From positions 128,001 through 192,000 of the forward strand of contig CAXXFV010000004.1 of the NCBI GenBank assembly GCA_963674595.2: 64,000 bases of DNA. The letters run 5' to 3'. Of this stretch, positions 4,701 to 35,454 are shown piece after piece. Numbering within the stretch: position 1 is the first letter of the stretch; every line of letters begins with the position of its first letter. The DNA is from a bacterium (lineage in GTDB: Bacteria > Zhuqueibacterota > Zhuqueibacteria > Residuimicrobiales > Krinioviventaceae). A program made the translations under genes and the position numbers. The notes beneath the pieces were generated by a model, which did not search any database, was not told the DNA's origin, and saw only the letters and a list, made by a program, of their open reading frames with translations.

Positions 4701-6527
4701 GTAAAAGATGATGTTCTATCGAAAGACATTTCTTTTTACGATGGTCAATATAGCACTATTTTCCGAGTCCCTAAATATTATCCTTTTCAAACCGGGTATT
4801 TTCGAATTTTTTCTCAAGATGGATCAGCAAATGCAAGGGTTCATGGCTCGGCAAATTTTGTATTAAAATCATTTTTATTCGACTCTGCTCTTGTTGAAAC
4901 TGAAAATGAAAAGCTGTATTTTTCATGCAAGTTGCAAACAACAGACGAAATAAAAGAAATGTATTGCAGGGTTGGTGGCGACACACTACTTTTGCAAAAA
5001 CAAAACAATTCTTGGTACAAAACACAAGAGGGATATGACTTTGAATATCAGGGTTATAACCTGTCATATATCTTTTATGCCATAAAAAATGATAATAGCA
5101 TAATATACAGCCCCACTTATGTGTACAATGTATCAAATGTGTATAATCTCTCGATTGATACAAATTCTATACAACTAGGCGGGCAAAATCAGGTAGAAAT
5201 TCAATTTGAAATTAACAATCTGTCTGAAAACAGTACCAATGTACCTGTTTCAGTATCCGGCAAAATTCCAGGTAATACAACATACTCTATAATAGGAACG
5301 GATACACTGTTCGTCATGCCCTATTCTCCATGTCGAGGCTCTGTTCCATTTTCAGCAACGACAGACATGATAGATATTCAGGTCACCATTGACCCGGATT
5401 CTTTATTAAATGAACAAAACAGATCTGACAACATTGCTTTTAAAAGTATTGAAATTAATAAATTCAACTTTAAACAAAACTCCGGCCTTTTTGTAAACAA
5501 TACACAAACCGACAGCCTTAAAAAAGATGAATTTAAAGCTATTATTTCAAAAAATTGTTTTTCCCAAACCGGTACTATCTCTTTGGAAAAATTGTCCAAA
5601 ATAACTATTCTCGAACAACCTGATTTTTCATCATTTTCGGGATTATCTGCTTTCACTCTCACACATTCTTTTGTTAATGAATCAGCTACCCCGATTATTG
5701 TACAGTTTTCCATAGATGACCTGACACTGGCAAAAATTGATTCTCAAAATTTGGAAACATATATCTATCAATATGTAGCAAATACAAATAAATGGCTTAA
5801 AATCCCGACCACCAGAGCAGGACGTTTATTTTCAGCACAAACAATAAACACCGGAACATTTGCACTTTTACATAGTGCCGACACACAAGGCCCAAATATT
5901 GAAATTTCAATAAACGGTCAGCCCTATGTTCCGAATTCATATTCAAGCCAGGAACCGCAAATCAGTATATACATTCAAGATCTAAACGGCATTGATATAT
6001 CCACAGACAAGCTACAGGTTTATTTAAATGGTGAAAAGCTGGACAACCATGATGAGCTGGCTTTACCGGATACAGTTAAAAATGGTAACCAGATCATGTT
6101 AGCCCTGAATCCCAAGCTATCATCCGGAAATCATTTTTTAAACATTGTAACCCTGGATTGTAACGGCAACATGACTGAATTGAATGATCTGACAATTAAA
6201 GTTGCAAACTCTTTTGAAATAAAAATGCTTGGTAATTATCCAAACCCGTTTTCGGAAGAAACAAATTTTGCCTATATATTGACACTACCCTGTGAAAATT
6301 TATCACTTAAAATTTATTCAGCATCAGGTCGGCTTATTCGCGACATAAATCCAAGAGAAATGAGTGAAGATCCCAATCCATATAGCTCCGATTACCATGA
6401 AATTCTATGGGACGGGACAGATAAAGAAGGATATCCGGTTGCGAACGGATTGTATTTTTATAAACTGTCCGCAATCGCTGATGGAAAAACTCATGAAATA
6501 ACCGGTAAAATAGCACGAATTCAATAA
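1714..6527 (+). CDS. C25 (gingipain) family cysteine peptidase, PorU-like, with T9SS C-terminal FlgD-Ig sorting domain; 1-nt frameshift near 1755
   Basis: C25 motifs DIYDEFNYG, YVLLVGDG, IGRLP, FHGHG (catalytic His), MTCFTG (catalytic Cys), LLGDP; CTD NYPNPF...WDGTDKEGYPVANGLYFY. The track ORF 1890-6527 lacks a signal peptide; ATG 1714 (MNQKKTKLLKIFCIF) joins the main frame (PIFIAGTSFSQQLQ) if one base is added at the T run 1754-1757. Confidence 0.85.
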
Positions 6528-7555: not shown

Positions 7556-8230
7556 ATGAAAAAATTTATATTCATAATAATTTTTAGCACTCTTTATCTA
7601 GTAAATTGTGAAAAAAATCTAAACAGCCCGATAATAGAGCTTGCAAAACCTGTTCTATTATCGACCCCCGCTGATACATTAATAAATGAGGCCGGAATTG
7701 ATGCAATCCCAGAAAAGGACGCCATTGAAATAAACTGGCTGCTAAACCCGGAATTTCATACTTTTCAACTTTACCGGAAAGCATCAAAAGACTCTGTTTT
7801 TAAACTATTGAGTGAATTCACACAAAAAGATAGTAATTATGTCGATGAAGACATTTTGTTAAACGAACGTTATTATTATTTTCTTATCGGTATTGATCAG
7901 CAAAATCGTAAAAGTGAACCGTCAGATACATTGGACTACCAGCTTGTAGAAAAAGCATTCAACTTGTTCACAAGTTTGCCTCAAGTCATTTTTCATTGGC
8001 AAATCAGCAATTTTTTTTATGACAGCTATATTATTAAATTATTTGATGATAACCAACAATTGATATGGATGAAACAAATTGATTCACCTCATCAACCCTT
8101 CAACTCAGACAGTACTGCTAAAATCTCAAAACTGGTTTCAGGGAAGAGATATAAATGGCGGGTTGATATTGTTGGAACTGAAATTCATTCGGGTAGTGAA
8201 TCTGACTGGAAATTCTTTTTAATGCCTTGA
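7556..8230 (+). CDS. Lipoprotein with fibronectin type III-like domains
   Basis: Lipobox-like LVNC; FN3-like motifs FQLYR, YVDEDI...YYYFLIGID...SEPS, YKWRV. Confidence 0.7.
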   Translation: MKKFIFIIIFSTLYLVNCEKNLNSPIIELAKPVLLSTPADTLINEAGIDAIPEKDAIEINWLLNPEFHTFQLYRKASKDSVFKLLSEFTQKDSNYVDEDILLNERYYYFLIGIDQQNRKSEPSDTLDYQLVEKAFNLFTSLPQVIFHWQISNFFYDSYIIKLFDDNQQLIWMKQIDSPHQPFNSDSTAKISKLVSGKRYKWRVDIVGTEIHSGSESDWKFFLMP

Positions 8231-9688: not shown

Positions 9689-10567
9689 ATGGAAGGTATT
9701 TTAACAGCCCTTATTACTCCATTTAAAAATGAAAAAATAGACTGGGATGCCCTGTCTTTCCTTATAGACAAACAAATTCAAGCCGGTATTACCGGCCTTA
9801 TTATCAGTGGGACAACCGGTGAATCGCCGACATTATCTGTAGATGAAAAAAAACAACTTTTCAAGTTTGTGTTGGACCACGCCCGGAACAGTATTAAAAT
9901 AGTTGCCGGAACAGGTAATTATTCCACTATAGAATCCATAGAATTAAGTCAATGGGCGGCTGACCTTGGTATAGATGCGTTGTTAACGGTTGTACCTTAC
10001 TATAATAAACCTTCCCAGGAAGGATTGTTTCAACATTTTTCACGAATCGCTGATGCTGTTTCACCCACCCCAATTATACTTTACAACGTTCCTTCCCGAA
10101 CCGTTACGGATTTATTACCCGAGACAATAGCACGATTAGCAAAGATAGAAAATATAAAATATGTTAAAGAAGCCACCGGGAAAATGGAACGGGTAACGGA
10201 AATTTTAGAACAGGCGCCTCATTTAACAATCCTGTCTGGAGATGATACCACATTTTTTCAGGGAATGAAGCACGGCATGCACGGCATTATTTCAGTGGCC
10301 TCAAATATATTCCCGGAGGCAATGGTTGAACTTTATCAGCATTTTAAAACAGGAAATATGGGAAAAGCAGAATCAATCGATACCATTCTAACACCATTTT
10401 ACAAAGCACTGTTTTGTGAATCAAATCCGGTCCCGGTTAAAACAATGGCCGCACTAAAGGGCTGGATATCTCCGGAGGTTCGGCTGCCTTTGGTACAATT
10501 ATCATCACAAAACGCAGAAATTGTTCAAAATACTTTAAACAATGTTGATGAAAAATTAAATGTTTGA
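9689..10567 (+). CDS. dapA: 4-hydroxy-tetrahydrodipicolinate synthase
   Basis: TALITPF, GTTGES, PYYNKP, LYNVPSRT, VKEATG (Schiff-base Lys), SGDD, NPVPVK. Confidence 0.95.
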   Translation: MEGILTALITPFKNEKIDWDALSFLIDKQIQAGITGLIISGTTGESPTLSVDEKKQLFKFVLDHARNSIKIVAGTGNYSTIESIELSQWAADLGIDALLTVVPYYNKPSQEGLFQHFSRIADAVSPTPIILYNVPSRTVTDLLPETIARLAKIENIKYVKEATGKMERVTEILEQAPHLTILSGDDTTFFQGMKHGMHGIISVASNIFPEAMVELYQHFKTGNMGKAESIDTILTPFYKALFCESNPVPVKTMAALKGWISPEVRLPLVQLSSQNAEIVQNTLNNVDEKLNV

Positions 10568-14701: not shown

Positions 14702-15601
14702 ATGAATACAGACTTTTCCGATAAATTTAAAATTCAACATAATGTCTCACTGGCAGATTATACATCTATAAAAATCGGGGGTAATGCTAAATATTTAGCC
14801 TCCATCTCCGACCTTAATTTGTATATAGAACTGTATCTTTTTTGCAAAGAAAAAAATATCCGCTTTTTATCACTGGGGCATGGTACAAATGTATTTTTCC
14901 CCCAAACAGGTTTTGACGGACTTGTTGTGATAAATAAAATGGATAAAATATGTACATGCAGCGGAAACTCGATCCTTGCCCAGTCAGGCGCTTCTCTTGC
15001 TGATGTAAACAAAACATGTCTTGAAAATTCATTGACGGGTTTTGAATTTACCTCGGGCATCCCGGGCTCAGTTGGCGGCGCTGTTTTCGGAAACGCCGGC
15101 GCCTACGGATGTGCTATTGGCAACAGACTGATACGTGCAAAAATATTGACACCGGAAGGAAAAATTTCATTTGTAGATAATGATTTTTTTAAATTTTCTT
15201 ATCGCAGCTCATACCTCAAAGTTTATAATGCCATACTTTTAGAAGCAGAATTTCAATTCCAAAAAGGGGACCAGCAGATTATTGAAAATAAAATCAATGA
15301 AATTTTGGAACTTCGCAGGCAAAAATTACCTGATCATAATGTCCCGACTGCCGGTTCGTATTTTAAAAATTTAAAAGACCAAAAGGGAAACCCGATCGCG
15401 GCGGCAAAATATCTTGATGCTGTAAACAGCAAACAAACCAGTGTTGGCGACATTGGCGTTCATTTTAAACATGCCAACATTTTTTATAATAAAGGCAAGG
15501 GCACTGCCGACCAGGTGCTGGAACTTGAAAAAATTTTAAAAGATAAAGTCCTTAAAAAGTTTGGAATCGACCTGGAAAGAGAAGTCATGTTCCTGGAATA
15601 A
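14702..15601 (+). CDS. murB: UDP-N-acetylenolpyruvoylglucosamine reductase
   Basis: TSIKIGG, GHGTNV, GIPGSVGGAVFGNAGAYG, FSYRSS, AGSYFKN, HANIF, LEREV. Start could be TTG 14699. Confidence 0.93.
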   Translation: MNTDFSDKFKIQHNVSLADYTSIKIGGNAKYLASISDLNLYIELYLFCKEKNIRFLSLGHGTNVFFPQTGFDGLVVINKMDKICTCSGNSILAQSGASLADVNKTCLENSLTGFEFTSGIPGSVGGAVFGNAGAYGCAIGNRLIRAKILTPEGKISFVDNDFFKFSYRSSYLKVYNAILLEAEFQFQKGDQQIIENKINEILELRRQKLPDHNVPTAGSYFKNLKDQKGNPIAAAKYLDAVNSKQTSVGDIGVHFKHANIFYNKGKGTADQVLELEKILKDKVLKKFGIDLEREVMFLE

Positions 15602-15683
15602 AACAATTCTGTGTTTTTTTTAATTTTTTGCACGGGGATTTGAAACGAATTTATCAATTTTGATTTTATAAACCGCTATAACG

Positions 15684-15715
15684 TACAAAAGGTCCGGAGG
15701 ACCGGACCTTTTGTA
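15684..15715. terminator. Bidirectional Rho-independent terminator (end of the mur operon on +, end of the candidate sRNA on -)
   Basis: Perfect 14-bp inverted repeat TACAAAAGGTCCGG-agga-CCGGACCTTTTGTA, T runs on both strands. Confidence 0.85.
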
Positions 15716-15853
15716 ACTGGGCAATGTTAATGCGGGGGTGAATGGAGTTTTTATAAAAACCAGAGCTCACTGATGAATATCAATGGGGCTCTTCAGGGGA
15801 TGTTAAAAATGTAACTCGGCCATCCCGATAGTGAACCCTGGATTCGTTTTCTA
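15684..15853 (-). ncRNA. Candidate sigma54-dependent small RNA (~170 nt); no family recognised
   Basis: GC-richer island in an AT-rich intergenic region, bounded by a -24/-12 motif and a terminator. Several hairpins (GGGATG/CATCCC; AGAGC..CATTGAT-attc-ATCAGTG..GCTCT; GTTTTT-at-AAAAAC) and a C-rich linker CTCCATTCACCCCCGC. No convincing ORF inside the predicted transcript. Confidence 0.55.
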
Positions 15854-15863
15854 CTTTTACTTT

Positions 15864-15879
15864 AGCAACATTCATTCCA
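15864..15879 (-). promoter_or_regulatory. Putative sigma54 (-24/-12) promoter of the candidate sRNA
   Basis: Minus strand TGGAAT-GAATG-TTGCT versus consensus TGGCAC-N5-TTGCW; GG and GC correctly spaced. Confidence 0.55.
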
Positions 15880-15961
15880 TTTTGGAAACATTTATCCAAA
15901 AACAATTAAAAAAAATATTGCACAAGTCTTTATTTTACAATACCAAAAAATGTTAATTTTT

Positions 15962-15975
15962 TGTCAAAACAGACA
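15962..15975. promoter_or_regulatory. Putative enhancer-binding-protein site
   Basis: Palindrome TGTC-aaaaca-GACA (TGT-N8-ACA) about 83 bp upstream of the -24 box. Confidence 0.4.
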
Positions 15976-16049
15976 GGCGGGCCAATGATTGAGGCCTGAA
16001 TGAAAAAAACGACATAAATGGATGACAAAAGTCTTAAAAAAGTGTCGGG

Positions 16050-17741
16050 TTAATTTTTATAATAGAGAGTTATACCCCATGAATCCGGATTATCAGGTTC
16101 GCAAGCATTCCAATCTTCAAAGCTGTGGCTATCATCACTGATATAATAAAGCACATAATCTCCAACGTGCAAATTTATTTGATCTTTACATAAACGATTT
16201 TTTTGAGCGCCGCCGGCACTGGTCGTATTTTGATATTCCATCTTCCAGACGACAGTTCCCTTAGAATCTTCAATCCAGCCATAATCATACATTTCCATTT
16301 GTTCCCCTTCCCCAAGGGCATAGATAAGGATGGGGGAATTCTGAGAAACAGTAAATTGCTTTTGTCTTTTTTCATTATCGCCGACTTTAGTAATGGAAGC
16401 GATATAGTTCGGATCATTTTCTTTAACATAAGAAATAACATCATCCGGTACAAACGAGCTGTCAGCCGGGAAAAGAGAAATTCCCCAAAATTCAGAATCA
16501 ACCGGAGGTGCATCGTTCCATTGATTATAGGCATGAGAATCATCTGAACGATAATACAGGTAATAAGCCCCTGCGGGCAGTTCAATAATCTGGTCCGCCA
16601 TGCGGTTCTTTTTTGCTCCACCGGCATGTACAGTATTATTTCTATTCATTGACCACACCGTTTCATGGGTTCCGGCATTAACAATCCAACCATGATCAGA
16701 AAATTGTTTACTATGTTTTACCTGTTCACCAAGAGCATAGATTCTCACCTTGGTATCTTTTAACAGCTCAAAGCCCTTTTTAATAAAAGCATTGTCTTGC
16801 ACATTGGTAATTTTAATAATGGTTTTATCAATAATTTCTTTGTTGTTTAAAAATTCCACAAATTTCATATCTTTCGGAGAGAACCACAAAGTTATTCCCC
16901 AGTATTCCGGATCATAGGGAATACAATCATTAAATTCTTCAAAGGAATGAGAATCGTCTGTAATAAAAGTCAGTTCATATTCCCCCGGAGGAATGGAAAT
17001 TATTTCTCTAAAAAGTCTGTTTTTTCTGCTGCCACCGGCATAACGTCCTTGTCCGGATTGGGGCTGCCAAACAACCTTTCTTGTTTTTGCATTTAAAATA
17101 ACGCCATAATCAAACAAATCCCGGTCCGACCTCTGGGCTTCCCCCAGCATATAAATTTCAGCTTTTATGGTTTTTTTAACCACAAACAACGATTTTAAAG
17201 ACTGATCATCCCCAACCTTAGTTAATTGAATACCGGGCCGGCTGGTAATAAAATTTTTTAACGGATAGCATTGATCCTGGTTGCTTTTATAGGGTGTAAT
17301 TTTCAGGTAAAAGTTGTCTTTTTTTGATTTTAATTTCAGCCCAGCCATCAATTCGTCAAATAAGCCTTTATCATGTTCATTTACTTCCTGTTCAAAGCAT
17401 AAAATACCGGCATAGGCTTCGTAGGATCCTTTTCTTAAAACAACCTGATTTTGAATTGTTACAAAATTATAATCTTTTGAGGAAACATCGGTTCGGTCCA
17501 CTTTCCATACAAGGTCACGCGATTCGGAATCCAGCAACCAAAATAAAGCTATAGGTTCTTCATCCACCACCGGAATAACAGCATCTATTTTTACTGTCAT
17601 TTCATCATCGACCCGAAATGATTGTTTTTCCCACTGGTTTTCCTCAAATTGATTAATAAGGACGACCGGGTCACCCCAGGTTTGAGCCGTTAAGAGTTGA
17701 ACAGAAAAAATCCAAAATCCTAAAATTAATTTTATATACAT
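16050..17741 (-). CDS. Secreted protein built from four tandem ~120-130 aa beta-rich repeats, unknown function
   Basis: Signal peptide LLTA/Q; repeats 2-4 share IYxLGE, D(Y/H)Gx I, VW, AGGxxKNR, GxYxL, DDSH(S/A), PxxxxxWGI(T/S)L; repeat 1 is degenerate. Confidence 0.8.
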   Translation of the reverse strand: MYIKLILGFWIFSVQLLTAQTWGDPVVLINQFEENQWEKQSFRVDDEMTVKIDAVIPVVDEEPIALFWLLDSESRDLVWKVDRTDVSSKDYNFVTIQNQVVLRKGSYEAYAGILCFEQEVNEHDKGLFDELMAGLKLKSKKDNFYLKITPYKSNQDQCYPLKNFITSRPGIQLTKVGDDQSLKSLFVVKKTIKAEIYMLGEAQRSDRDLFDYGVILNAKTRKVVWQPQSGQGRYAGGSRKNRLFREIISIPPGEYELTFITDDSHSFEEFNDCIPYDPEYWGITLWFSPKDMKFVEFLNNKEIIDKTIIKITNVQDNAFIKKGFELLKDTKVRIYALGEQVKHSKQFSDHGWIVNAGTHETVWSMNRNNTVHAGGAKKNRMADQIIELPAGAYYLYYRSDDSHAYNQWNDAPPVDSEFWGISLFPADSSFVPDDVISYVKENDPNYIASITKVGDNEKRQKQFTVSQNSPILIYALGEGEQMEMYDYGWIEDSKGTVVWKMEYQNTTSAGGAQKNRLCKDQINLHVGDYVLYYISDDSHSFEDWNACEPDNPDSWGITLYYKN

Positions 17742-17751
17742 AATAAATCCG

Positions 17752-18594
17752 TTATTTTACAGTTATATCCAGTTCGCCAATTCCCGATGAAATGACAAGA
17801 TATAATGAATTTTCAGCCGTGTTATAGTTTTCCGAATAAAGATATTTGCCTTTTTTTGAAAACCTGGTCGGAAAATTAATTTGGGACAAAAAAGATAAAG
17901 ATGAAACTTTGATTTTTGTACCAACCGATTCAGGAATAATTACCGATGTTTCACCAATGTCGAGATCGATTTTGGCCATGGTTCGGTGTATTCTCTCACC
18001 GGTAAAATCGACAGTCATTTCACCAATGCCGCCGTTTATGTCAGCTTCTTTAAAATTCGCATTTCCAAGATTTCTTAATGTAAGCTCACCGACTTTAACA
18101 TTGACGTCAAATGTTTCCATGGGTATTTTATTGGGCTGGAAAAAGTCAACATCAACTTGACCTGCCCAGTTTATCAAATCAAAATTTTTTATTCTCAAGC
18201 CGCCTACATCATACTTGATTTCACCAGCCTTTATTCTGCTTTTTATATTAATAAAGGGCTTTTCAGGCAAACGAACGATGAGTTTTGCGCTTTCCTGACC
18301 ATTTGTGTTTTTCCAGACTTTCCAGTTTTTAAAATCAAATTTAATATCGAGTTCATTTTTTCTTTCATTAAAACGGATATCACCTCTGCTGTTTTTTTCA
18401 CTGTACTTTAGTGAAACCCAAACATAATCCTCATCATGTCTTTCGACAATGACAATGCCGCCGTCTACCTCCAAATTAATCTGAACATTGTCTTCCACGA
18501 CATAAGATTCTTCTATAACTACCCGTTGTTCCTGCGCAAAGACACAGGTAACGAGCAACAAAAAAAATGAACATAAGATAATAAACTGCTTCAT
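17752..18594 (-). CDS. Secreted LiaF/DUF2154/toast-rack-like beta-solenoid protein
   Basis: Signal peptide VFA/Q; repeated GE/GIGE turns (KAGEI, KVGEL, GGIGEM, DIGET, SGIGEL). Confidence 0.65.
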   Translation of the reverse strand: MKQFIILCSFFLLLVTCVFAQEQRVVIEESYVVEDNVQINLEVDGGIVIVERHDEDYVWVSLKYSEKNSRGDIRFNERKNELDIKFDFKNWKVWKNTNGQESAKLIVRLPEKPFINIKSRIKAGEIKYDVGGLRIKNFDLINWAGQVDVDFFQPNKIPMETFDVNVKVGELTLRNLGNANFKEADINGGIGEMTVDFTGERIHRTMAKIDLDIGETSVIIPESVGTKIKVSSLSFLSQINFPTRFSKKGKYLYSENYNTAENSLYLVISSGIGELDITVK

Positions 18595-18632
18595 CAGTCC
18601 TCCTGATTCCCAAAAATTTTATACAAAAAAAA

Positions 18633-20396
18633 TTAAAATTCCTTTTTCAATCGTATTGTAACAACAATATCGCCGTCTCCGACATCGGTCCGTTTTGCAA
18701 AATTGATGCGGAAATCATCATCATCACTGGACAGGCCAATTCCGACATTTGTTTTTAAAGAACTCCATGTCAATGAGCTAAAAGAGTCATCCAGCTTTTT
18801 CTCGTTCATTTTGTCCACATATTTCGGGTCCATGGGCCAATACGATTGCATTTCAGGAGTATTGCTTTCAGCGAACCAGGCACATCCGGAATCAACAAAT
18901 AATACAAGGTTCATTTCATCGAACAACGTCCAGTCCAATTCACTGGTTTCTAACGTGTATTCAATATTTGCTAATAACATCCGGTCACCTGTAAATTCTT
19001 TATGACGGTACCCTCTCAAAGTCGACAATCCTCCCAAATCAAACCAATACATGGGCGGTAAAACACCATTTGACGAACCAATTCGCAGCCGAAGGTCCAG
19101 TCCTTCATCCCATCCAAGTGGTTGATATCGCCTCACATCAAGAATTTGTCTTTGGAAATCAAGATCACTTTTCAGACCATTTCCGGCTTTTTCAGCAAAA
19201 AGATTAATAAACCATCCACGTTCCGGGTTTTCGTCATCATCCCTGGTGTCATAAACCAGATTAAATGAATAACTTTGCAGATTCATGTGGGGATCATTAC
19301 CGGCCGCTATCTCGTTCAAGCAGTAACCATAGGGAAGAGCCCAGGGATTGGGCCGAAAATCTTTACTCTTGCCAAACACGGCCCATTCGGTATTTTTTTC
19401 CAAATTATTTATTTTATCGTTATGATAGCCAAATTTTAATGACAACTGATCAAAAAATCTGTTTTTTGCATATATCGAAAAACCTTCCCGTTTATAATAG
19501 TCCCGGAAATCTTCATTTATTAAAAATGCACCCAGGGCATTTTCCAAATCACTGATAATCCAACGGTCTTGTGTATCTGTCATATCGTGGGCCTCGGCCC
19601 CGACTGTACACGCAAAAATTGGAAACACACAACGTTCCAGACCTATTTGATATTGTATATTTTTGCTTGAAAAGGAATAACCAACTTTACCTATTACACC
19701 GATTCTTTTTTGCTCTTTACGCCACCATTCGCTTGACGGAAAATTGAAACCGAGTGTCAACCCATCAACCCGGTTATAATCCGCGTAAACAGGTTCATGA
19801 TCTGACTGGAAGTTATGACGAACAATTTTGCGTTTTGGACGATGATGCTCGGTTGTAACATGAATTTCTTGTTCCTGCCTTTCCTCATCCGAAACACGGT
19901 TATAATGATTTGAACTTTGTCGCTCTATAATATCACCTTCAACAAAAGCATTTCGATCTTTCCAGATTTTACCGTCTACACAAACAACGTCTCCCTCAAC
20001 ATAAGCATCTGCTTCAAGATGAATATCTCCAAACAAGGTCAATATCGTTCCTTCAACCTGTCCGTATAACGTCAGGGTGCCTTTTACAACTAATATATCC
20101 GACCCAATCACTTTATCGGACGCAATTTCAACATCACCAAAGTATCTTTCAATATGGTTACCAACTCTTTCCTCTTCACCGATTTCGCCCTCTGTCTCTT
20201 TACCGGTACGAAATTCATTCATCCCTAGATACTTTTTCTCCATCTTTTCAGCAATTTCCTGCTCCTTTTCTGAAAGATTGGAATATTTCGGATCCTGAGC
20301 ATAAGTCCTTTTTGTCAGTAATAAGCTTAAAATAATAATAATTGCCATAATAGCCCAAATCCAGTACAGAATTTGTTTTGCCCGTGATTGTCCCAT
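18633..20396 (-). CDS. Omp85 (BamA/TamA-like) outer-membrane protein with bactofilin-like beta-helix N-domain
   Basis: Signal peptide TYA/Q; GDVEI/GTLTLYGQVEG/GDIHL/VEGDVV repeats; barrel begins at YNRVDGLTLG; Omp85 lid motif LGGLSTLRGY; C-terminal Phe. Confidence 0.75.
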   Translation of the reverse strand: MGQSRAKQILYWIWAIMAIIIILSLLLTKRTYAQDPKYSNLSEKEQEIAEKMEKKYLGMNEFRTGKETEGEIGEEERVGNHIERYFGDVEIASDKVIGSDILVVKGTLTLYGQVEGTILTLFGDIHLEADAYVEGDVVCVDGKIWKDRNAFVEGDIIERQSSNHYNRVSDEERQEQEIHVTTEHHRPKRKIVRHNFQSDHEPVYADYNRVDGLTLGFNFPSSEWWRKEQKRIGVIGKVGYSFSSKNIQYQIGLERCVFPIFACTVGAEAHDMTDTQDRWIISDLENALGAFLINEDFRDYYKREGFSIYAKNRFFDQLSLKFGYHNDKINNLEKNTEWAVFGKSKDFRPNPWALPYGYCLNEIAAGNDPHMNLQSYSFNLVYDTRDDDENPERGWFINLFAEKAGNGLKSDLDFQRQILDVRRYQPLGWDEGLDLRLRIGSSNGVLPPMYWFDLGGLSTLRGYRHKEFTGDRMLLANIEYTLETSELDWTLFDEMNLVLFVDSGCAWFAESNTPEMQSYWPMDPKYVDKMNEKKLDDSFSSLTWSSLKTNVGIGLSSDDDDFRINFAKRTDVGDGDIVVTIRLKKEF

Positions 20397-20435
20397 TGTA
20401 TCCTCAAATTATAAATATCTGTTTTTTCGGTAATA

Positions 20436-20451
20436 CGCAATCCTTATGCCA
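20436..20451 (-). promoter_or_regulatory. Sigma54 (-24/-12) promoter of the 20396-16050 operon
   Basis: Minus strand TGGCAT-AAGGA-TTGCG, 40 bp upstream of ATG 20396, which has a GAGGA ribosome-binding site. Confidence 0.7.
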
Positions 20452-20525
20452 CAAAACGACCCAACTTAAAACGGCGTAATTCAAATAAAAACAATGTAAG
20501 TTATTTAAAACGATTCACGCCCTGT

Positions 20526-20539
20526 TGTTAAAATACACA
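20526..20539. promoter_or_regulatory. Putative enhancer-binding-protein site
   Basis: TGT-taaaatac-ACA (TGT-N8-ACA) about 75 bp upstream of the -24 box; a second TGTAggaattTTACA-like palindrome lies at 20557-20571. Confidence 0.4.
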
Positions 20540-20574
20540 GTAAAATATTTAATTAATGTAGGAATTTTACACAA

Positions 20575-21555
20575 TCAATAAAAACTGGAATTTCTTAATT
20601 CTTCCAATAATTGATTCATGTCATCGGGGATTGGGGCTTCAAAGCGAACAACCTCATCTGAAACAGGATGTTTGAATGAAAGACACCTGGCATGCAGCAT
20701 TTGACGTTTATACTCCTTGAGAAGACTGTTGACAAATTGAGAGCGTTTTTTATTAAGCCCGGCTAATTGTTTTCCTCTTCCTCCATAGACAGAGTCGGAA
20801 AACACGGGATGCCCCAACGAGGTCATGTGGACCCGAATTTGATGTGTACGTCCGGTTTCCAGATTAAGTTTTACATAGGACGTTAAGGCCATTTCCTCTA
20901 AAACCTGGTAATGTGTAATAGCATGTTTCCCATCATTCCGGATCATCATACGAGTCCGGTCCTTTGGGCTTCGTGCGATGGCTGCTTCAACCGTGCCGGA
21001 AGGTTCTTTAAAATGCCCCCAAACAATGGCCCTGTATTCTCTTTCCATTTTATATTGAGAAAGCTGTTTAGCCAATGTTACATGGGTCACATCGTCTTTT
21101 GCAACAACAAGCAGGCCGGATGTGTCTTTGTCCAGGCGGTGGACAAGCCCCGGCCGGGTATCACCCCCAACATCCGACAATTTTTTGCAATGCGAGAGCA
21201 AAGCATTTACAAGAGTGCCTTTCATATTTCCATAGGCAGGATGAACAACCATGTTCGGCGGCTTGTTGACAACAAGCAAATATTCATCTTCAAATACAAT
21301 ATCCAATGGAATGTCTTCCGGTTCCAGCGTTGTTTCTTGTCTGGCGGGAAAAACAACATGTATTTTTTCTCCGGGACGAATCAGGTACCCTGCCTTAACA
21401 GACCGTCCATCAACAGTAATCCTGTCCTCGTCAACAAGTCTTTTTAACTTGGCCCGGGTGACAGATGTCAATTGAGCGGCTATAAATTTATCCAACCGTT
21501 CCTTTACGACGCCATCAGGAACGATAAATTCCAAATCTTTTTCTTCCATTACCAA
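20575..21555 (-). CDS. rluD: RluA/RluD-family 23S rRNA pseudouridine synthase with S4 domain
   Basis: ERLDKF (S4), VNKPPNMVVHP, VHRLDKDTSG, LETGRTHQIRVH, QMLHA. Start may be ATG 21549. Confidence 0.93.
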   Translation of the reverse strand: MVMEEKDLEFIVPDGVVKERLDKFIAAQLTSVTRAKLKRLVDEDRITVDGRSVKAGYLIRPGEKIHVVFPARQETTLEPEDIPLDIVFEDEYLLVVNKPPNMVVHPAYGNMKGTLVNALLSHCKKLSDVGGDTRPGLVHRLDKDTSGLLVVAKDDVTHVTLAKQLSQYKMEREYRAIVWGHFKEPSGTVEAAIARSPKDRTRMMIRNDGKHAITHYQVLEEMALTSYVKLNLETGRTHQIRVHMTSLGHPVFSDSVYGGRGKQLAGLNKKRSQFVNSLLKEYKRQMLHARCLSFKHPVSDEVVRFEAPIPDDMNQLLEELRNSSFY

Positions 21556-21697: not shown

Positions 21698-21738
21698 ACA
21701 TCTCTTTTTGAGATAACTATTTTTTTTTGGAGACGATA

Positions 21739-22980
21739 GTGCAAAGTAAAAATATAGGTTCTTTTTTAACAATATGCCTATGTGTTCTTTTGCTCCTTTC
21801 TTGTTCAAAATATAAACCTGACACGCCGTTTCCAATTATTGCCTGGTACGGACCTGAAGTAACAACTTTACAGAATTCCTATAATTTGGTAAAAGAGGCT
21901 GGATTCACAGTCCTTTTTCCCGGATTTAACGATCCCTCTCAAAACCTTAAAGCTTTAGACGCAGCAGATTCCAGCGGCTTGCAGCTTTTATTAAGCGATC
22001 CGCGTATTGAACAACTGCGTACAGGTAAAGACTCGGTTTTTACAAGGCTGGACAGTGTTATTACCGATTACCAAACTCATCCCGCATTTTGGGGTTATTA
22101 TTTACATTTCGAAGCAGGATTAAAAGATATAGACAGATTAATGTTAATAAAAAATTACATCGAAAAAAAAGATTCCGTTCATTATGTTTACCTGAACTTG
22201 TTGCCGATATACACCCCCATTAGTCAGCTTGATACAACAACATATACAGCCTATTGCAAAACTATGGTCCAACAATTAAATCCCAAATTTATCAGTACTC
22301 CACTTTTTTCGATAACAACAAACGGACTAGAACCAGAATATTACAAAAACCTGGAAATTATGAATTGGCTTTCGGAAAAATTTCAAATACCATTTTGGAC
22401 CTTTGTTTTGACAACTCCCCATAGTAATTATGTCGAGCCTTCCCTTTCCAGGCTGAAATTTCAAGTTTTTAGCGCATTAGCTCATGGAGCAACAGGGCTT
22501 GAATATTTTACCTATGCAACCCCGAATATTAATTCATGGAAATGGGGTGCCTCAATGGTAGATGAAAATGGAGCGCCAACCCATACCTATAATCTGGTGA
22601 AATCAATAAATAATCAAGTTAATAACTGGATACCATATTTCAGTAAATTCACACCAAAAGGAACATTTCACAGTTCTCCTGTTCCTACCGGTTCCAGAGA
22701 TATTGAACAGTCGAACATTATTATAAAAATAAATGGGTCATCTATTTTAGCCGGCTTTTTCAAAGATGAGGACAACCATCAATACGTTTTACTGGTCAAT
22801 AAAAACTATACCCACGGATCCATGCCCCTTATCTATTTTTCTCCCCAAATCACAAAAATCCGGGAAATCCCTAAAAACAACATTCGTCCTCTGGTACTAA
22901 AATGGACGGTAGATGAAGAAAAAAGTCATAAATTTATTTTCAAGGCAGGTGGCGCCCGATTGTTTCGGCTTTATTACTAG
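21739..22980 (+). CDS. Lipoprotein, probable glycoside-hydrolase-like TIM barrel of unknown specificity
   Basis: Lipobox LLSC; FPIIAWY, EAGFT, HPAFWGYY, LAHGATGLEYFTY pattern. GTG 21739 with GGAG upstream preferred over TTG 21727. Confidence 0.6.
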   Translation: MQSKNIGSFLTICLCVLLLLSCSKYKPDTPFPIIAWYGPEVTTLQNSYNLVKEAGFTVLFPGFNDPSQNLKALDAADSSGLQLLLSDPRIEQLRTGKDSVFTRLDSVITDYQTHPAFWGYYLHFEAGLKDIDRLMLIKNYIEKKDSVHYVYLNLLPIYTPISQLDTTTYTAYCKTMVQQLNPKFISTPLFSITTNGLEPEYYKNLEIMNWLSEKFQIPFWTFVLTTPHSNYVEPSLSRLKFQVFSALAHGATGLEYFTYATPNINSWKWGASMVDENGAPTHTYNLVKSINNQVNNWIPYFSKFTPKGTFHSSPVPTGSRDIEQSNIIIKINGSSILAGFFKDEDNHQYVLLVNKNYTHGSMPLIYFSPQITKIREIPKNNIRPLVLKWTVDEEKSHKFIFKAGGARLFRLYY

Positions 22981-26792: not shown

Positions 26793-27599
26793 TTACAAAA
26801 TATCGGGATAAAAATATTGAATTAGTTTTTCTTCAGGAGTTAGTCCATCAATGCCTTTATGAGGTCTTACTCCGTTGTAATAATTGACAAATCTTTTTAG
26901 CTCATTTTTACGATGGGCTGATGATTTAAAAACAGTTTTATTATGCCAAAGCTCGACAAGAGTTCGTATAACTCTTTCAGCTTTGCCATTTGTTTGTGGC
27001 CTTTTAACTTTGGTAAATTTTTGTTCAATACCATGTTCTTTGCACAACTTCATAAACTTATGATTATTCGGATCACCTCGGTACTCTCGGCCATTATCAG
27101 TATAAAATTGTTCTATTGTATATGGACATTCATCCACGACTTGCTCCAAAAACTTTTTAGCTGAATATTGGGTTTTATCAGGTAAAATAGCAGCATACAG
27201 TTCTCTAGAAAAGTCATCAATGGCCACAAACAGGTATTCCGTTCGTTCAAAAGGAGATTCCCCCTTAATTAAGGGAAGTTTTTTAGTGTCACCATGTATC
27301 ATTTGTCCTGGATAGTCTTTATTATATCGTTTGGCCTGACGTTTTAGCTTGTCCTCAAGTTTTTTTTCGATTTTAGCCAAACGTTTAATGCCGTATTTTA
27401 AACAGCGAAAACGCTTGTTTACACTCTTGTGAATTGAATAATCTTTTTGTCGGCCATTATGGATTATTTTATAAATTGTAGGTCGACTGACATGAAACTC
27501 TCGTGCTAAATCACAAACACGTCTTTTTTCGGAAAAATATAATGTGCAAACTTTTTCCCGTTGAATCGGCGTTAATCTGGTCTTTTTATGAATTACCAT
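26793..27599 (-). CDS. IS481-family DDE transposase
   Basis: N-terminal HTH (LAREFHVSRPTIYK), HGDTK, AIDDFSR, TDNGREY, PQTNGKAER, YNGVRPH. Confidence 0.93.
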   Translation of the reverse strand: MVIHKKTRLTPIQREKVCTLYFSEKRRVCDLAREFHVSRPTIYKIIHNGRQKDYSIHKSVNKRFRCLKYGIKRLAKIEKKLEDKLKRQAKRYNKDYPGQMIHGDTKKLPLIKGESPFERTEYLFVAIDDFSRELYAAILPDKTQYSAKKFLEQVVDECPYTIEQFYTDNGREYRGDPNNHKFMKLCKEHGIEQKFTKVKRPQTNGKAERVIRTLVELWHNKTVFKSSAHRKNELKRFVNYYNGVRPHKGIDGLTPEEKLIQYFYPDIL

Positions 27600-27768: not shown

Positions 27769-27784
27769 TGGCATTAAAATTGCC
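27769..27784 (+). promoter_or_regulatory. Putative sigma54 promoter of the glycosyltransferase/beta-helix genes
   Basis: TGGCAT-TAAAA-TTGCC oriented toward 27944. Confidence 0.5.
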
Positions 27785-29824: not shown

Positions 29825-32137
29825 ATGAAAGGTATTCGTGTGAAATATAGGGTTTTTTTCGGATTTTTATTATCAGCTTCTTTATCCATCTATCTTTCTT
29901 CATTAAACGCATCAACATTTACAGTAACAAAAACTACCGGACATGCCGATAGCACACTCATTTGGGCGTTGGAGCAATGCCAAACCAATCCCGGTGCGGA
30001 CACTGTTAACTTTGATCTTTCACAAGACGATCCTCAATATAATTCACAATTCTGGACAATAGAACTCGATGGATCCCTTCCCACCCTGACAGACGATGCT
30101 ACATTTATCGACGGCCAGACGCAGAAGGACAGAATTTCCTATGAATGGGATGGACCGGTCATTGAAATAAACGGCCTGGCGTCATCTGCCAGCCATCCGG
30201 GGCTGCAAATAAATTCAAGTTATAATATTATTTCTCATCTTGCATTTGTAAATTTTCCGGCAACAGCAATTTCCATTTCCGGCGCAAGTTCCAAATACAA
30301 TACAATAACAGGTTGTTATATAGGAATCTCTGCTGACGGCAGCACAAGTAAAGAAAATAACGGAAACGGTATTGAATGTGTTAATTATTCAAGCCATACC
30401 AGTATTTGTTACGGTAATGTCATATCAAACAATACCCGCTATGGGATCCAATTTGAAAACAGCAGCGATAACAAAATTTTAGGAAACATTGTCGGCACCG
30501 ATGCATCCGGTTTGGAAGCCAGGCCAAACGGAGCTTATCCAAAAAAATATGCCGGAGTCAATATTTCGCACATCTCTAAAAATAATCAGGTAGGAGACGG
30601 AACAGAAACAGGAAGGAATATATTATCCGGTAATCATCGTACAGGGATAAGATTTGAAAAAACAGGCGCAGAAAATAATATCCTTCAGGGAAATTATATC
30701 GGAGTCGGTTCTGATGGTATTACCAAAATTCCCAATGGAGAAGCCGGTTTGTTAATTGGCCGGGATGCAAAATACAATATAGTCGGTGGAGACACACCGG
30801 AGCAGGCAAATATCATCTCCGGTAACCATTCCAGTGGTGTTCAAATGGCCAGAGAATCTTCTTTTAATACTTTGAAAGGTAATTTGATAGGTCTGGATGC
30901 AAGTGGAACGGTTGCCGTCCCCAATGATCATAACGGTATCTATTTTTACGGGAATGATGAGGAAGGGTATCCCCATGACAACACAATAGGTCCCGGTAAT
31001 ATTATTTGTGGAAACGGTACTTCGCCCTATGATCAGTTTTGGGCAGCTATCTCAATAGACAATCGCGGTACTGTAAACAATACATGTTACGGCAACTGGT
31101 TAGGAACAAATCCCTATACATCTTTTAACGACGGACAACCCACCGGCATTTTGGTCCAGCACGGCGCCCATAACAATATTTTAGGACCGGACAATGTTAT
31201 TGTAAACTGTGATTTTAACGGTGTTCATATTTTAAACGACAGCACAACGTCCAATAAAATCACACGTAATCTTATCTATAATTATCAGGAAAAACCAATA
31301 CTAAATGAAGACGGCGGCAACAATTCTTTAGAGCGGCCGACAATTCACACGGCAACTGGTAAAAGAATTACCGGAAAAAGCTTTGCTTTTGCAGTTGTGG
31401 AACTTTACGCCGGCTATACAGGTGCGGCAAACGAATATTTGGGCTCTGCAACAGCCGATTCAACAGGTTATTTTCAATGGTTTGGCGCTGTTCCGGATGC
31501 ACTTATTTCGGCAACCGCAACAGACCAAAACGGAAACACGTCAGAATTTTCCGAAAGCGTTCCTTTACCGGTAGAAATGTTATCGTTTACAGTCACTCAA
31601 CAAAACAAAGAGACTGTTTCACTGATTTGGCGGACAACCAATGAAATTAATAATCATGGCTTTCGAATAGAACGAAAACATGATGACTTACAGTTTGAAA
31701 ATATTGGTTTTGTACAAGTTAAAACTGAAGGCTCTGTGTGTGAATACCAATTTGATGATAAAATACAATCACCCGGTAATTATTCCTATAGAATCATACA
31801 AATTGACAACAATGGTAACGAAACAATTTCCGGGTTGCAGTCGATTTTCATTTCCCCGGAACAATTCAAACTTGTTCTTGAAAACTATCCAAATCCATTT
31901 AACAACTCAACCAAAATTGACTATTATGTCCCGGGTTCTGAAAGAACAAAAATAGAAATATTCAACCTTAAAGGTCAGCTCTTGAAATCTTTTACAAACA
32001 TTTCATTAAATAAAAGTAATTCCCTTATTTGGGATGGAACGGATAGTGAAGGCAAAATTGTAAACAGCGGGCAATATTTTATCATTTTATCCAACTCTCA
32101 AAATCGCTTTGTTAAAAAATGCCTTTTCATTAAATAA
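29825..32137 (+). CDS. T9SS cargo: right-handed parallel beta-helix protein with C-terminal sorting domain
   Basis: GNxISGN and GNxIG repeats, TATDQNGNTSEFS, PLPVEMLSF, CTD NYPNPFN...WDGTDSEGKIVNSGQYF. Confidence 0.85.
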   Translation: MKGIRVKYRVFFGFLLSASLSIYLSSLNASTFTVTKTTGHADSTLIWALEQCQTNPGADTVNFDLSQDDPQYNSQFWTIELDGSLPTLTDDATFIDGQTQKDRISYEWDGPVIEINGLASSASHPGLQINSSYNIISHLAFVNFPATAISISGASSKYNTITGCYIGISADGSTSKENNGNGIECVNYSSHTSICYGNVISNNTRYGIQFENSSDNKILGNIVGTDASGLEARPNGAYPKKYAGVNISHISKNNQVGDGTETGRNILSGNHRTGIRFEKTGAENNILQGNYIGVGSDGITKIPNGEAGLLIGRDAKYNIVGGDTPEQANIISGNHSSGVQMARESSFNTLKGNLIGLDASGTVAVPNDHNGIYFYGNDEEGYPHDNTIGPGNIICGNGTSPYDQFWAAISIDNRGTVNNTCYGNWLGTNPYTSFNDGQPTGILVQHGAHNNILGPDNVIVNCDFNGVHILNDSTTSNKITRNLIYNYQEKPILNEDGGNNSLERPTIHTATGKRITGKSFAFAVVELYAGYTGAANEYLGSATADSTGYFQWFGAVPDALISATATDQNGNTSEFSESVPLPVEMLSFTVTQQNKETVSLIWRTTNEINNHGFRIERKHDDLQFENIGFVQVKTEGSVCEYQFDDKIQSPGNYSYRIIQIDNNGNETISGLQSIFISPEQFKLVLENYPNPFNNSTKIDYYVPGSERTKIEIFNLKGQLLKSFTNISLNKSNSLIWDGTDSEGKIVNSGQYFIILSNSQNRFVKKCLFIK

Positions 32138-35200: not shown

Positions 35201-35454
35201 GTGATTTCCTTTTTTATTTTATCTGTTGTTGATTGAACCTTGAGGTTTTCTATCAACTTTTGTTCAACTTGCGATATTTCCTTAATGTGATTCTTTGTTT
35301 TTGCGAGTTCGTTTGTTGTTTGTGCTTTTGAAATTTGCTGAGAAACGAGTAAATATCTTTGCATCTTAACTTCACCGTCTTTGGGAAATACTGTGGAAAT
35401 AAAAACAAATAATATTCCACAATAAACACCAAAATATTTTAACAATCTTGACAT
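32233..35454 (-). CDS. T9SS cargo with repeated carboxypeptidase-regulatory-like (transthyretin-like) domains
   Basis: Repeated G(S/T)IxGxV, GxYxIxGLxxGxY and EYY/EFY motifs; CTD QNYPNPFNPTT...WDGKDNNGLTVAAGIYF. Confidence 0.85.
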   Translation of the reverse strand: MSRLLKYFGVYCGILFVFISTVFPKDGEVKMQRYLLVSQQISKAQTTNELAKTKNHIKEISQVEQKLIENLKVQSTTDKIKKEITLHSRPDVLVPTFLKQLQQQDVSALALANEYEQNITFDVGTISGTVTVEGNVPDSPVIMLAFDDHGYFAGIDTVSNQDGSYEIETTSGDSFYVLTLSRHYIDELYDDVKAPLSSLETWRQAQKVVTNQANVNFDLETGAFIAGTIFNEDGVTPVDNNYATIVLFRADQPIPLYEEIVDLENGKYDSVGVPVLGDFKAVAYAEGYNLSWHTQQQTWEAADVISINSYDDYLTNVNFNMAAIPEEELTGGVTGKISVKGGFVPMPAFLSVIAAFDVADSSFAGLGLGILGAYEINGLAEGEYYIYANDYTGSLLGTGNFLGEYFSDAYSIGEAQPVTVNAGVLTEDIDFVLEPGASITGTVTDEFGQPLDSLMVVAINNVLSDSTGEPFLANMQIGAAVTNTDGEYEITGLQTGDYYLRTISSFVLNPDLASLMDGGELIIQGKHAENVVDEYYGGVHNILKINESTKVSVVVPEETANINFSLDAARFISGKVTIAQNGAPFSDLIIVALDTTSGFPYLPWAQIEDDGNYVLGPLPTGDYKLLALPGSEGGIEYLPEFYNNKRTFENATVLQLNGPVLTGIDIALDQGATIQGFVSLAKQAQDVYAGADTLYGFPVVIYDAVTGALASYDWVQFNGGYRVSNLVPGDYKIAAIPMPSDFATTYYGGGNTFNDALNQIVTVDYGDVKDIDLTLTQATGSIQGHITHRQTGAALSMIMVVAYDASGHPVGFAFSDYDVLKEISLSETGQYLISGLNPGTYYIRTVAMTSLIQASALLNMVTGFSEGFDLASILGDGLDFSEFSLNVFKDYWYKNVPAAMNFDIQQFLFGLSSYGTPNDFNTSMLPYYLPLPFSEEIPPMAQGVQVYSNASTTDIDIMVEDGSIDDILPTDVENSETTQIPEKFTLYQNYPNPFNPTTTISFSVPQVQNVSISIFNALGRYVKTIDNQRFQAGTHYVQWDGKDNNGLTVAAGIYFARIQADNFDKTIKMLLVK

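Follow-up and report, generated by a model that had tools for sequence, protein, structure and literature searches.

Three exported envelope proteins encoded in one operon

The window analyzed here is a 64-kb stretch (64,000 nt) of contig CAXXFV010000004.1 from the bacterial assembly GCA_963674595.2, and it encodes on its minus strand an operon of three co-oriented genes, whose products are a POTRA-less barrel protein of the Omp85 family, a Toastrack protein and a protein with four jelly-roll repeats (Table 1). The genes are separated by gaps of 38 nt and then 10 nt, and all three products (587, 280 and 563 residues) begin with a hydrophobic, signal-peptide-like segment when read by eye, in agreement with an earlier note on this DNA that had described three tightly packed, co-oriented exported proteins. 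The best named protein matches and the nearest tree neighbours of the operon belong mostly to candidate division KSB1 (Zhuqueibacterota). A genome scan returned 327 relatives of the barrel gene, the best 80 of which were taken with up to 10 kb of flanking sequence and are referred to as the related loci; this sample leans to KSB1 and Calditrichota. A sigma54- and enhancer-controlled operon of exported envelope proteins, as the note had proposed, was found to be conserved in KSB1 and its relatives, and we consider it a real and apparently undescribed variant of the Omp85/Toastrack envelope systems, whose dual regulation is unusually clear. Support is good for this regulation, whereas the biochemistry of the products is a matter of inference.

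Table 1 Features of the barrel operon and its surroundings (window coordinates; AF2, AlphaFold2; pLDDT, predicted local distance difference test; UAS, upstream activating sequence).
Feature	Position	Strand	Evidence
rluD-type pseudouridine synthase	20575..21555	-	Pfam; usual upstream neighbour, ahead of the promoter that serves the operon
Distal enhancer (UAS) site TGTGTAAAATTCCTACA	20557..20573	-	22.4 bits, top score in the window; exact pattern match
Proximal enhancer site TGTGTATTTTAACAACA	20523..20539	-	18.8 bits, second-best score in the window
Sigma54 -24/-12 promoter TGGCATAAGGATTGCG	20436..20451	-	equivalent box before the barrel gene in 46/80 related loci
POTRA-less Omp85 protein, 587 aa	18633..20396	-	Pfam Omp85 4e-19, DUF5686; AF2 pLDDT 88; Foldseek BamA
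Exported Toastrack protein, 280 aa	17752..18594	-	Pfam DUF4097 and LiaF-like_C above curated cut-offs
Exported four-jelly-roll-repeat protein (CUB/PPC-like), 563 aa	16050..17741	-	AF2 pLDDT 91
TGT-N8-ACA string TGTCTGTTTTGACA, the second one named in the earlier note	15962..15975	-	does not fit the conserved enhancer site (1.3 bits; window rank 140)
Possible second sigma54 box TGGAATGAATGTTGCT (TGGAATGAATGTTGC at 15879-15865)	15864..15879	-	pattern match; not conserved
Candidate non-coding RNA body	15716..15856	-	GC-richer, modest hairpin
Bidirectional intrinsic terminator	15684..15715	.	perfect inverted repeat with A-/T-tracts; terminator scan; self-complementary match

The first gene encodes a member of Omp85 that is neither a BamA/TamA nor a noNterm protein. 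It scored 69.6 bits against the Pfam Omp85 model (cut-off 24) and 40.7 against the NCBIfam BamA model (cut-off 297), and its AF2 model comprises a long signal peptide (residues ~1–33), a helix (43–61), a bactofilin-like beta-helix (82–160), a disordered linker and 16 barrel strands within residues 203–582. In structural comparison the barrel was closest to Sam50 (VIA Z 23.6) and TamA (21.7), with Z scores of 19–24 for Sam50, BamA and TamA together versus 15–17 for FhaC and CdiB. Both lid-lock motifs, RG(Y/F/W) in loop 6 and FxDxG in strand 13 as defined in the available text of PMC11358297, were found (LRGY460-463 and FVDSG500-504); among 100 barrel homologs the RG motif was kept in 66 and the FxDxG column in 96. 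No POTRA domain was detected by Pfam up to an E-value of 1. Approximately 170 residues precede the first barrel strand, and the model places there the well-folded, right-handed beta-helix (pLDDT >90), which superposed on the bactofilins 6ria (Z 10.1, root-mean-square deviation (rmsd) 2.8, 73 residues aligned) and 2n3d (Z 9.2, rmsd 1.8, 74 aligned). The Pfam Bactofilin model was below its cut-off in the window protein (12.6 vs 27.9) and above it in three of the four longer homologs scanned, with up to three Bactofilin stretches per longer homolog. The earlier note had likewise named an Omp85/bactofilin barrel. As it follows a signal peptide, the domain is predicted not to be cytoplasmic, unlike bactofilin filaments. 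Scoring of 7998 candidates gave 185 barrel homologs, and the Atlas neighbours of the protein include clusters from Calditrichota, Zixibacteria, Gemmatimonadota and Rhodothermota. Many close homologs start with an extended hydrophobic signal segment rich in Trp (window 20298-20396 (-); alignment A1), which may be cleaved slowly or kept as an inner-membrane anchor.

The second gene product was above the Pfam cut-offs for LiaF-like_C (33.8 vs 29) and DUF4097 (29.4 vs 22.9), and well below that of NCBIfam LiaF_C_term (31.7 vs 57); two-component genes are absent from the operon. The protein is a Toastrack protein and not LiaF: the previous description as "LiaF-like" is correct for the Toastrack beta-helix that it has in common with LiaF, and does not extend to a multi-pass membrane domain, which is missing. 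A single N-terminal hydrophobic segment ends at a conserved alanine, and in the alignment Ala20 of the signal peptide was nearly invariant, with a signal-peptide-like start in 38 of 38 sequences. Toastrack domains recur in the phage-shock protein (PSP) and Lia stress systems, according to the available text of PMC11237479.

For the third protein, the AF2 model showed four jelly-roll repeats, as expected from the note's "four-repeat protein". Four repeats were also found in 110 of 120 homologs, and five to six in the other ten; 2493 homologs were found in total. Repeats 2–4 of the window protein contain a conserved GE..DYG..TDDSH motif, and across the homologs GE..D[YFHW]G was present in 309 of 375 non-first repeats and [TS]Dx[SG]H in 332 of 375, versus one of 120 first repeats in each case. 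The repeat domains were moderately similar to PPC and CUB domains (VIA Z 7.0–8.8, rmsd ~3 over 89–109 residues), at a level in the range of common folds. No sequence match in the PDB and no NCBIfam family was found, Pfam gave sub-threshold or inconsistent matches only, and the Atlas neighbours were all "hypothetical". Ca2+-binding CUB domains use a Tyr-Glu-Asp-Asp motif (available text of PMC10850435 and PMC8051872), to which the Glu, Asp-Tyr and Asp-Asp residues of the repeat may be equivalent, judging from sequence. The protein may work like CUB domains, and is a possible member of that family. The type IX secretion tail is absent from the repeat protein, even though the window encodes type IX components, a PorU-like C25 protein (1890-6527 (+)) and SprA (38098-44286 (-)), along with cargo-type tails at 29825-32137 and 32233-35454.

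A single copy of the same repeat was found in 26 longer proteins, of which 25 are propeller/YYY sensor kinases or phosphatases, with the repeat located in the extracytoplasmic part, and one is a beta-lactamase-family protein. GE..DYG is kept in 24 and TDDSH in 21 of these. The proteins (P0241-P0266) include RsbU phosphatases, and their named sources are Bacteroidota and Ignavibacteriales; the unannotated repeat merits a domain model of its own.

The operon is flanked by rluD on one side, a family found in 38 of the 80 related loci, and by the convergent dapA-murD-lysC-murA-murB operon on the other. Beyond rluD, on the opposite strand, lies a lipoprotein-like gene (21727-22980 (+)) with homologs in 12 related loci and no family in Pfam or NCBIfam, and further on an IS481-like transposase gene (26793-27599 (-); 198 bits vs a cut-off of 224).

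Sigma54 promoter, tandem enhancer and the sigmaW-type promoter of sister lineages

Sigma54 boxes follow the consensus GG-N10-GC at -24/-12. The pattern TGGMAY-N5-TTGC matched three times in the window (shuffled sequences: mean 1.03, with three matches reached in 6 of 100), and is on its own weak evidence for a promoter. The box of the operon, which had been proposed as TGGCAT-N5-TTGCG at 20451-20436, is validated by its conservation, as an equivalent box recurs before the barrel gene in the related loci.

A 17-bp enhancer matrix was trained on the sigma54-type upstream regions of the related loci, with the window left out, and had the consensus TGTGT(A/C)WWWWWNCNACA, describing a tandem TGTGT-N9-ACA site. 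Its two best matches in the window are TGTGTAAAATTCCTACA, situated 122 nt upstream of the -24 box and just past the rluD stop codon, and TGTGTATTTTAACAACA, 34 bp from it, placing the sites at -122 and -88; two exact pattern matches were reached in 0 of 100 shuffles. At least one site was found in all 47 sigma54-type upstream regions (window included), with a best score per promoter of at least 9.9 bits, and two or more sites in 31, of which 27 had a spacing of 33–35 bp. A prefiltered scan of 2.49 Mb yielded 25 further sites of at least 14 bits, 21 of them within 500 nt of a barrel gene. Three loci (L018, L063 and L073) carry the enhancer together with a weaker -24/-12 box. Taken together, these sequence patterns make control of the operon by sigma54 and a tandem enhancer very likely.

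The earlier note had instead pointed to TGT-N8-ACA upstream of two promoters. Both strings exist, at 20526 and 15962, among 20 such strings in the window, and TGT-N8-ACA was rejected as the conserved enhancer motif, being present in only 9 of the 47 regions versus 45 for the N9 and 41 for the N11 spacing. The string at 20526 is part of the true proximal 17-bp site, the partner of which at 20557-20573 had been missed.

Exact sites of the integration host factor (IHF) type were present in 7 of the 47 regions, compared to 0.7 in shuffled sequences. Activator motifs occurred near the operon in 4 of 80 loci, and their position was not conserved. NtrC/AtoC-like sigma54 response regulators are encoded a few kb downstream of the operon in L004 (15409-16758), L006 (9413-10756) and L065 (14252-15631 (-)), and are candidates for the activator with the same reservation about position. 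A comparison with nine E. coli sigma54 promoter regions did not identify the activator, as all nine scored below 8 bits on the KSB1 matrix (maximum 7.8; pspA 2.8, pspG -1.4, zraP 6.5, glmY 7.5); for PspF, the motif of a distant ortholog could have drifted. The available text of the review PMC12655853 gives no activator motif, no paper combining KSB1 with sigma54 or RpoN was among the matches listed, and a literature search for TGT-N11-ACA-type enhancer spellings returned only an unrelated LysR paper. A third sigma54-like box, TGGCATTAAAATTGCC at 27769-27784 (+) (15.4 bits), lies 175 nt before a PMT-family glycosyltransferase gene, and no site for the activator of the barrel operon was found upstream of it.

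The remaining related loci comprise 29 non-sigma54 loci with upstream sequence and five further loci without it. A sigmaW-type extracytoplasmic function (ECF) promoter motif, G[T/A]AAC-N16/17-CGTA, was found in 19 of the 29, versus 2 of 47 sigma54 loci, against a background of 26 occurrences in 2.46 Mb (0.005 per region). The Fisher p of 8e-9 overstates independence, since the motif was first spotted by eye in these same, related loci, which weakens the case built on it. One locus, L077, carries the ECF motif and was not scored for the -24/-12 box. The best enhancer score among the 19 ECF loci was 8.2 bits. As these loci have an ECF promoter, one operon is wired to two regulators. The motif fits the sigmaW consensus TGAAAC/CGTA, T-tract included, as given in the available text of PMC5758882. 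The window keeps TTGCGTA and is devoid of an ECF -35 element. In L002 (~9919-9944) and L022 (~7891-7916), an intact GAAAC-N17-CGTA overlaps the sigma54 box, with the -10 sharing bases with the -12, so a transitional or dual promoter is possible there. Near misses seen by eye, and kept outside the counts, are ECF-like in L009 (CGTC as -10) and L071 (GCAAC as -35) and sigma54-like in L050.

A quick tree of the barrels had 78 rows, two short rows and L077 being excluded. The ECF promoters on it characterize Calditrichia, Ignavibacteria and a single KSB1 subclade, and promoter type requires three changes. A single sigma54 clade was not rejected (p-AU 0.11, 68 labelled rows), and the barrel sequences would accommodate more than one number and direction of promoter switches. 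Two loci labelled Synechococcus (L070) and Actinomycetota (L016) group with Ignavibacteria and KSB1 barrels, and are probably mis-binned contigs.

Proposed role and competing explanations

Gene linkage was evaluated where the sequence extends at least 3.5 kb past the barrel gene, which is the case in 54 loci. The family of the second gene was present in 35 and a second Toastrack family (DUF4097/LiaG-like) in 19, with either in 42, and a Toastrack plus a repeat gene in 16; in the Calditrichia loci the barrel gene has the repeat gene immediately after it. Frequent members of related operons that are missing from the window are a YciC/BPSS1780-like membrane protein (19 loci; e.g. L035:12657-13277) and an NAD-dependent epimerase (11 loci; e.g. 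L014:11949-13019). A fusion search among the best 150 of 4214 profile matches to the Toastrack gene revealed P0394, a Toastrack fused to the barrel family (42% identity to the window barrel over 290 residues) and occupying the place of the bactofilin-like domain, and P0393, a Toastrack fused to two repeats. Co-folding of barrel and Toastrack scored 0.32 versus 0.00 for the best control, with a contact agreement between runs of at least 51% and partner pLDDT of at least 81. Of 157 solved complexes, 116 reached the mark for a positive co-fold, as did two of the 215 mismatches, and passes scoring no higher than 0.60, as here, comprise 18 of the 157 solved complexes and both passing mismatches; the predicted complex thus supports a contact weakly.

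Promoter architecture, domain content, linkage and fusions are shown here; a stress trigger, the binding of ligands, a use of Ca2+ and an activity in insertion or repair are proposed. An envelope-stress system, as the earlier note had suggested, is probable, and the replacement of sigma54 by a sigmaW-type promoter in sister lineages agrees with it. We slightly favour that the three products form a physical module, and only tentatively suggest, as the leading reading, the full mechanism, that of a stress-induced accessory module for outer-membrane assembly or repair. Judging from the sequence, an activator binds two 17-bp sites on one helical face ~90–120 bp upstream of the sigma54 promoter. 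This activator would be an NtrC/Fis-family enhancer-binding protein that envelope damage switches on, with an ECF sigma factor in this position in the relatives. All three products would be Sec-exported and come together on the periplasmic side of the outer membrane. The barrel would sit in the membrane with its loop-6 lid locked, offering a lateral gate, with its periplasmic beta-helix at the position of the POTRA domains of BamA, and the Toastrack beta-helix protein would dock as an adaptor on its periplasmic face, the beta-helices replacing POTRA as docking surfaces. The CUB-like repeats would grip protein or peptide ligands via acidic, probably Ca2+-coordinating sites. Such clients, for instance membrane-active peptides or envelope proteins that were mis-assembled, could then be handed to the barrel and be inserted, cleared or sequestered there.

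Several points weigh against this proposal. ECF sigma factors serve non-stress roles too. The window's own upstream region contains no IHF match, and neither rpoN nor a gene for the activator of the operon was found within the 64-kb window. The repeat gene was present in only 18 of the 54 loci, the exact order barrel-Toastrack-repeat in 8, and no partner at all was found in 10. Each fusion is a single sequence, P0394 is devoid of the barrel end, and either fusion could be an assembly artefact. For the repeats, the Z scores to CUB and PPC lie where common folds also lie, and no CUB or PPC family was among the best five Pfam matches per protein for 42 homologs. Without POTRA domains, insertase activity of the barrel is uncertain, and Toastrack is regarded as intracellular in the available text of PMC11237479.

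In a competing explanation, the repeat protein would be an adhesin or ligand trap of the cell surface that the barrel translocates there in a two-partner-like manner, with the Toastrack protein as a periplasmic chaperone. Omp85/TpsB barrels do translocate operon-encoded passengers, and this has been discussed for noNterm Omp85 (available text of PMC11358297); the position of the repeat gene directly after the barrel gene in Calditrichia and the repeat number of 4–6, as in adhesins, fit as well. The repeat gene is, however, missing from 36 of the 54 loci, the barrel is nearer to Sam50, BamA and TamA than to FhaC and CdiB, POTRA domains for passenger recognition are absent, and the repeat also occurs joined to Toastrack (P0393) and within inner-membrane sensors, which makes export improbable. 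The occurrence of the repeat in sensor kinases and RsbU phosphatases speaks for trans-envelope sensing or uptake, where barrel and repeats would bind an outside ligand and the beta-helices relay signal or cargo inward to the regulator of the operon. Toastrack has been proposed as a signalling scaffold (available text of PMC11237479), dedicated promoters would suit a feedback loop, and the long hydrophobic N-terminus of sigma54-type barrels could anchor in the inner membrane. Yet the conserved neighbours include no gene for a sigma or anti-sigma factor, a kinase or an activator (ECF sigma family in four loci, activator motifs in four) and the lid-lock motifs argue for a closed pore, so we rate sensing as quite improbable. 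The bactofilin matches, and the up to three Bactofilin stretches of longer homologs, would also suit a structural scaffold, in which the domain polymerises in the periplasm and braces the outer membrane together with Toastrack. This is very unlikely, as the domain is replaceable by Toastrack (P0394) and tight inducible promoters suit a response over a constitutive skeleton.

The earlier note had combined the operon with the region downstream of it, in a model where the operon and a small RNA (sRNA) are both under a single enhancer-binding protein, after the pattern of stress regulons such as sigmaE with MicA/RybB, and are tied to the peptidoglycan operon. A good -24/-12 match does lie 170 nt into the gap and ~165 nt before the terminator, the candidate RNA is a 173-nt stretch with higher GC (0.45 vs 0.27–0.30 in the flanks), and the string at 15962-15975 resembles the proximal enhancer site by eye. 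That string scored 1.3 bits, compared to 22.4 and 18.8 for the true sites and at least 9.9 for the best site of each of the 47 promoters, and no second site is in register. The folding z-score was -5.0 with the terminator and -1.6 to -2.5 without it, and the terminator sits between the convergent murB and barrel operons, which explains its bidirectionality. A sigma54 box after the last operon gene was found in only 2 of 69 loci scanned (the window and L033), and searches of the 80 loci with blastn and nhmmer, within 10 kb of the barrel genes, gave no homolog of the RNA (best nhmmer E 0.69). Phages gave no homolog either, and plasmids a single 62-nt match (E 0.02). Rfam returned nothing at gathering thresholds on the window, and six chance matches for 15550-16100 (best E 0.36); no tRNA or tmRNA was found for the candidate, and the region holds only very short open reading frames without a clear ribosome site. 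Among 43 window start regions, the best target of the 48-nt unpaired stretch had a z-score of -2.6 from a short 3' match, which is at chance level and not convincing. The tail-to-tail arrangement with the peptidoglycan operon is true in the window, and a meaning of it is not supported, as dapA, murD, lysC, murA and murB were found in none of the 80 loci. The joint model is therefore extremely unlikely, and the claims of an RNA arm and a mur link should be dropped, the former unless transcript data revive it. The candidate RNA may be an orphan sRNA or the 3' trailer of the operon. A sigma54-dependent orphan under another activator is possible, if doubtful, because of the good box, the higher GC and the 449-nt gap, and co-regulation of the RNA with the operon is very unlikely.

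Returning to the accessory assembly or repair module, a broader version of it is conceivable, though unlikely in full: an unrecognised Omp85 branch of the FCB group would be a stress-induced alternative insertase or repair machine, with right-handed beta-helices, bactofilin-like and Toastrack, in place of POTRA and Ca2+-dependent CUB-like repeats catching substrates in the periplasm, and the operon would have been rewired between a sigmaW-type ECF sigma factor and sigma54 with an undescribed activator, L002 and L022 showing what a transitional state would look like. Phage-shock systems would offer a parallel in their split between sigmaW and sigma54/PspF. POTRA-less Omp85 proteins are widespread, and to our knowledge none has a known job. 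The barrel family described here makes this question testable in cultured Calditrichota or Ignavibacteriota, since its partners can be named (from the operon, two fusions and a weak co-fold), its enhancer motif is precise and an ECF-type promoter is available as a second one. Toastrack, so far placed in cytoplasmic stress systems beneath the membrane, is extended by the operon to the periplasm and outer membrane. The repeat defines a domain of the ligand-binding type, as yet unannotated, that sensor kinases use as well, and the switch of a single operon between an ECF sigma factor and sigma54 is a clean example from nature.

Comparison with known envelope systems

No description of the Omp85 and bactofilin-like architecture, the operon or the enhancer was found in the literature covered, which comprised the available text of PMC11237479, PMC4104836, PMC11358297, PMC5758882, PMC12316311, PMC12655853, PMC8051872 and PMC10850435, the large tables of the first two and subscription journals lying outside the coverage, and nothing relevant linked DUF4097, Omp85/BamA, sigma54 and envelope stress. 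Closest to the window barrel are noNterm and other non-POTRA Omp85 proteins (Heinz and Lithgow 2014, PMC4104836, and PMC11358297, available text), which likewise have 16 strands, the RG(Y/F) and FxDxG motifs and no POTRA, and for which function is also untested and a stress link has been proposed. The noNterm proteins of Leptospira have only 22–43 residues there and no periplasmic domain (PMC11358297, available text), whereas the periplasmic part of the window barrel folds into a bactofilin-like beta-helix. Such an architecture is not listed for the subfamilies in the available text of section 10 of PMC4104836. The window barrel is also encoded in an operon with Toastrack and repeat proteins under its own sigma54 or ECF promoter. 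With BamA and TamA it shares the barrel fold (Foldseek E 1e-16 to 1e-13, VIA Z 19–22) and the lid-lock, and it differs from them in the absence of POTRA, in patchy accessory partners and in an inducible promoter.

The Toastrack-containing PSP/Lia operons (LiaG, LiaF-C, YvlB and LiaX; available text of PMC11237479) resemble the barrel operon in the beta-helix, the frequent presence of two paralogs per operon and stress-type promoters. In contrast to these, the window Toastrack has a signal peptide and an outer-membrane barrel as partner, and PspA, PspC, the LiaI/LiaF membrane domain and two-component genes are all absent from its operon. The window repeats may be akin to Ca2+-binding CUB domains and bacterial PPC/collagen-binding domains in their jelly-roll fold and in acidic residues recalling Tyr-Glu-Asp-Asp, and they likewise occur in tandem copies; they have no sequence-level match to these domains and no conserved disulfides.

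Regarding control, E. coli PspF/pspA, ZraR/zraP and GlrR/glmY also combine sigma54 with tandem enhancer sites over envelope proteins, GlmY being a sigma54-dependent sRNA, and the tandem 17-bp palindrome of the zraP-zraS region has a geometry similar to that of the barrel-operon enhancer; the target genes differ, and the scores on the KSB1 matrix are low. The B. subtilis sigmaW regulon (ECF01; available text of PMC5758882) has the same promoter elements as the 19 ECF loci: the -35 is (T)GAAAC or GTAAC, in many cases next to a T-tract, and the -10, CGTA, follows at a distance of 16–17 nt. Unlike in B. subtilis, the motif of the barrel operon occurs in diderm bacteria of the FCB group, and in the window sigma54 takes the place of the ECF sigma factor.

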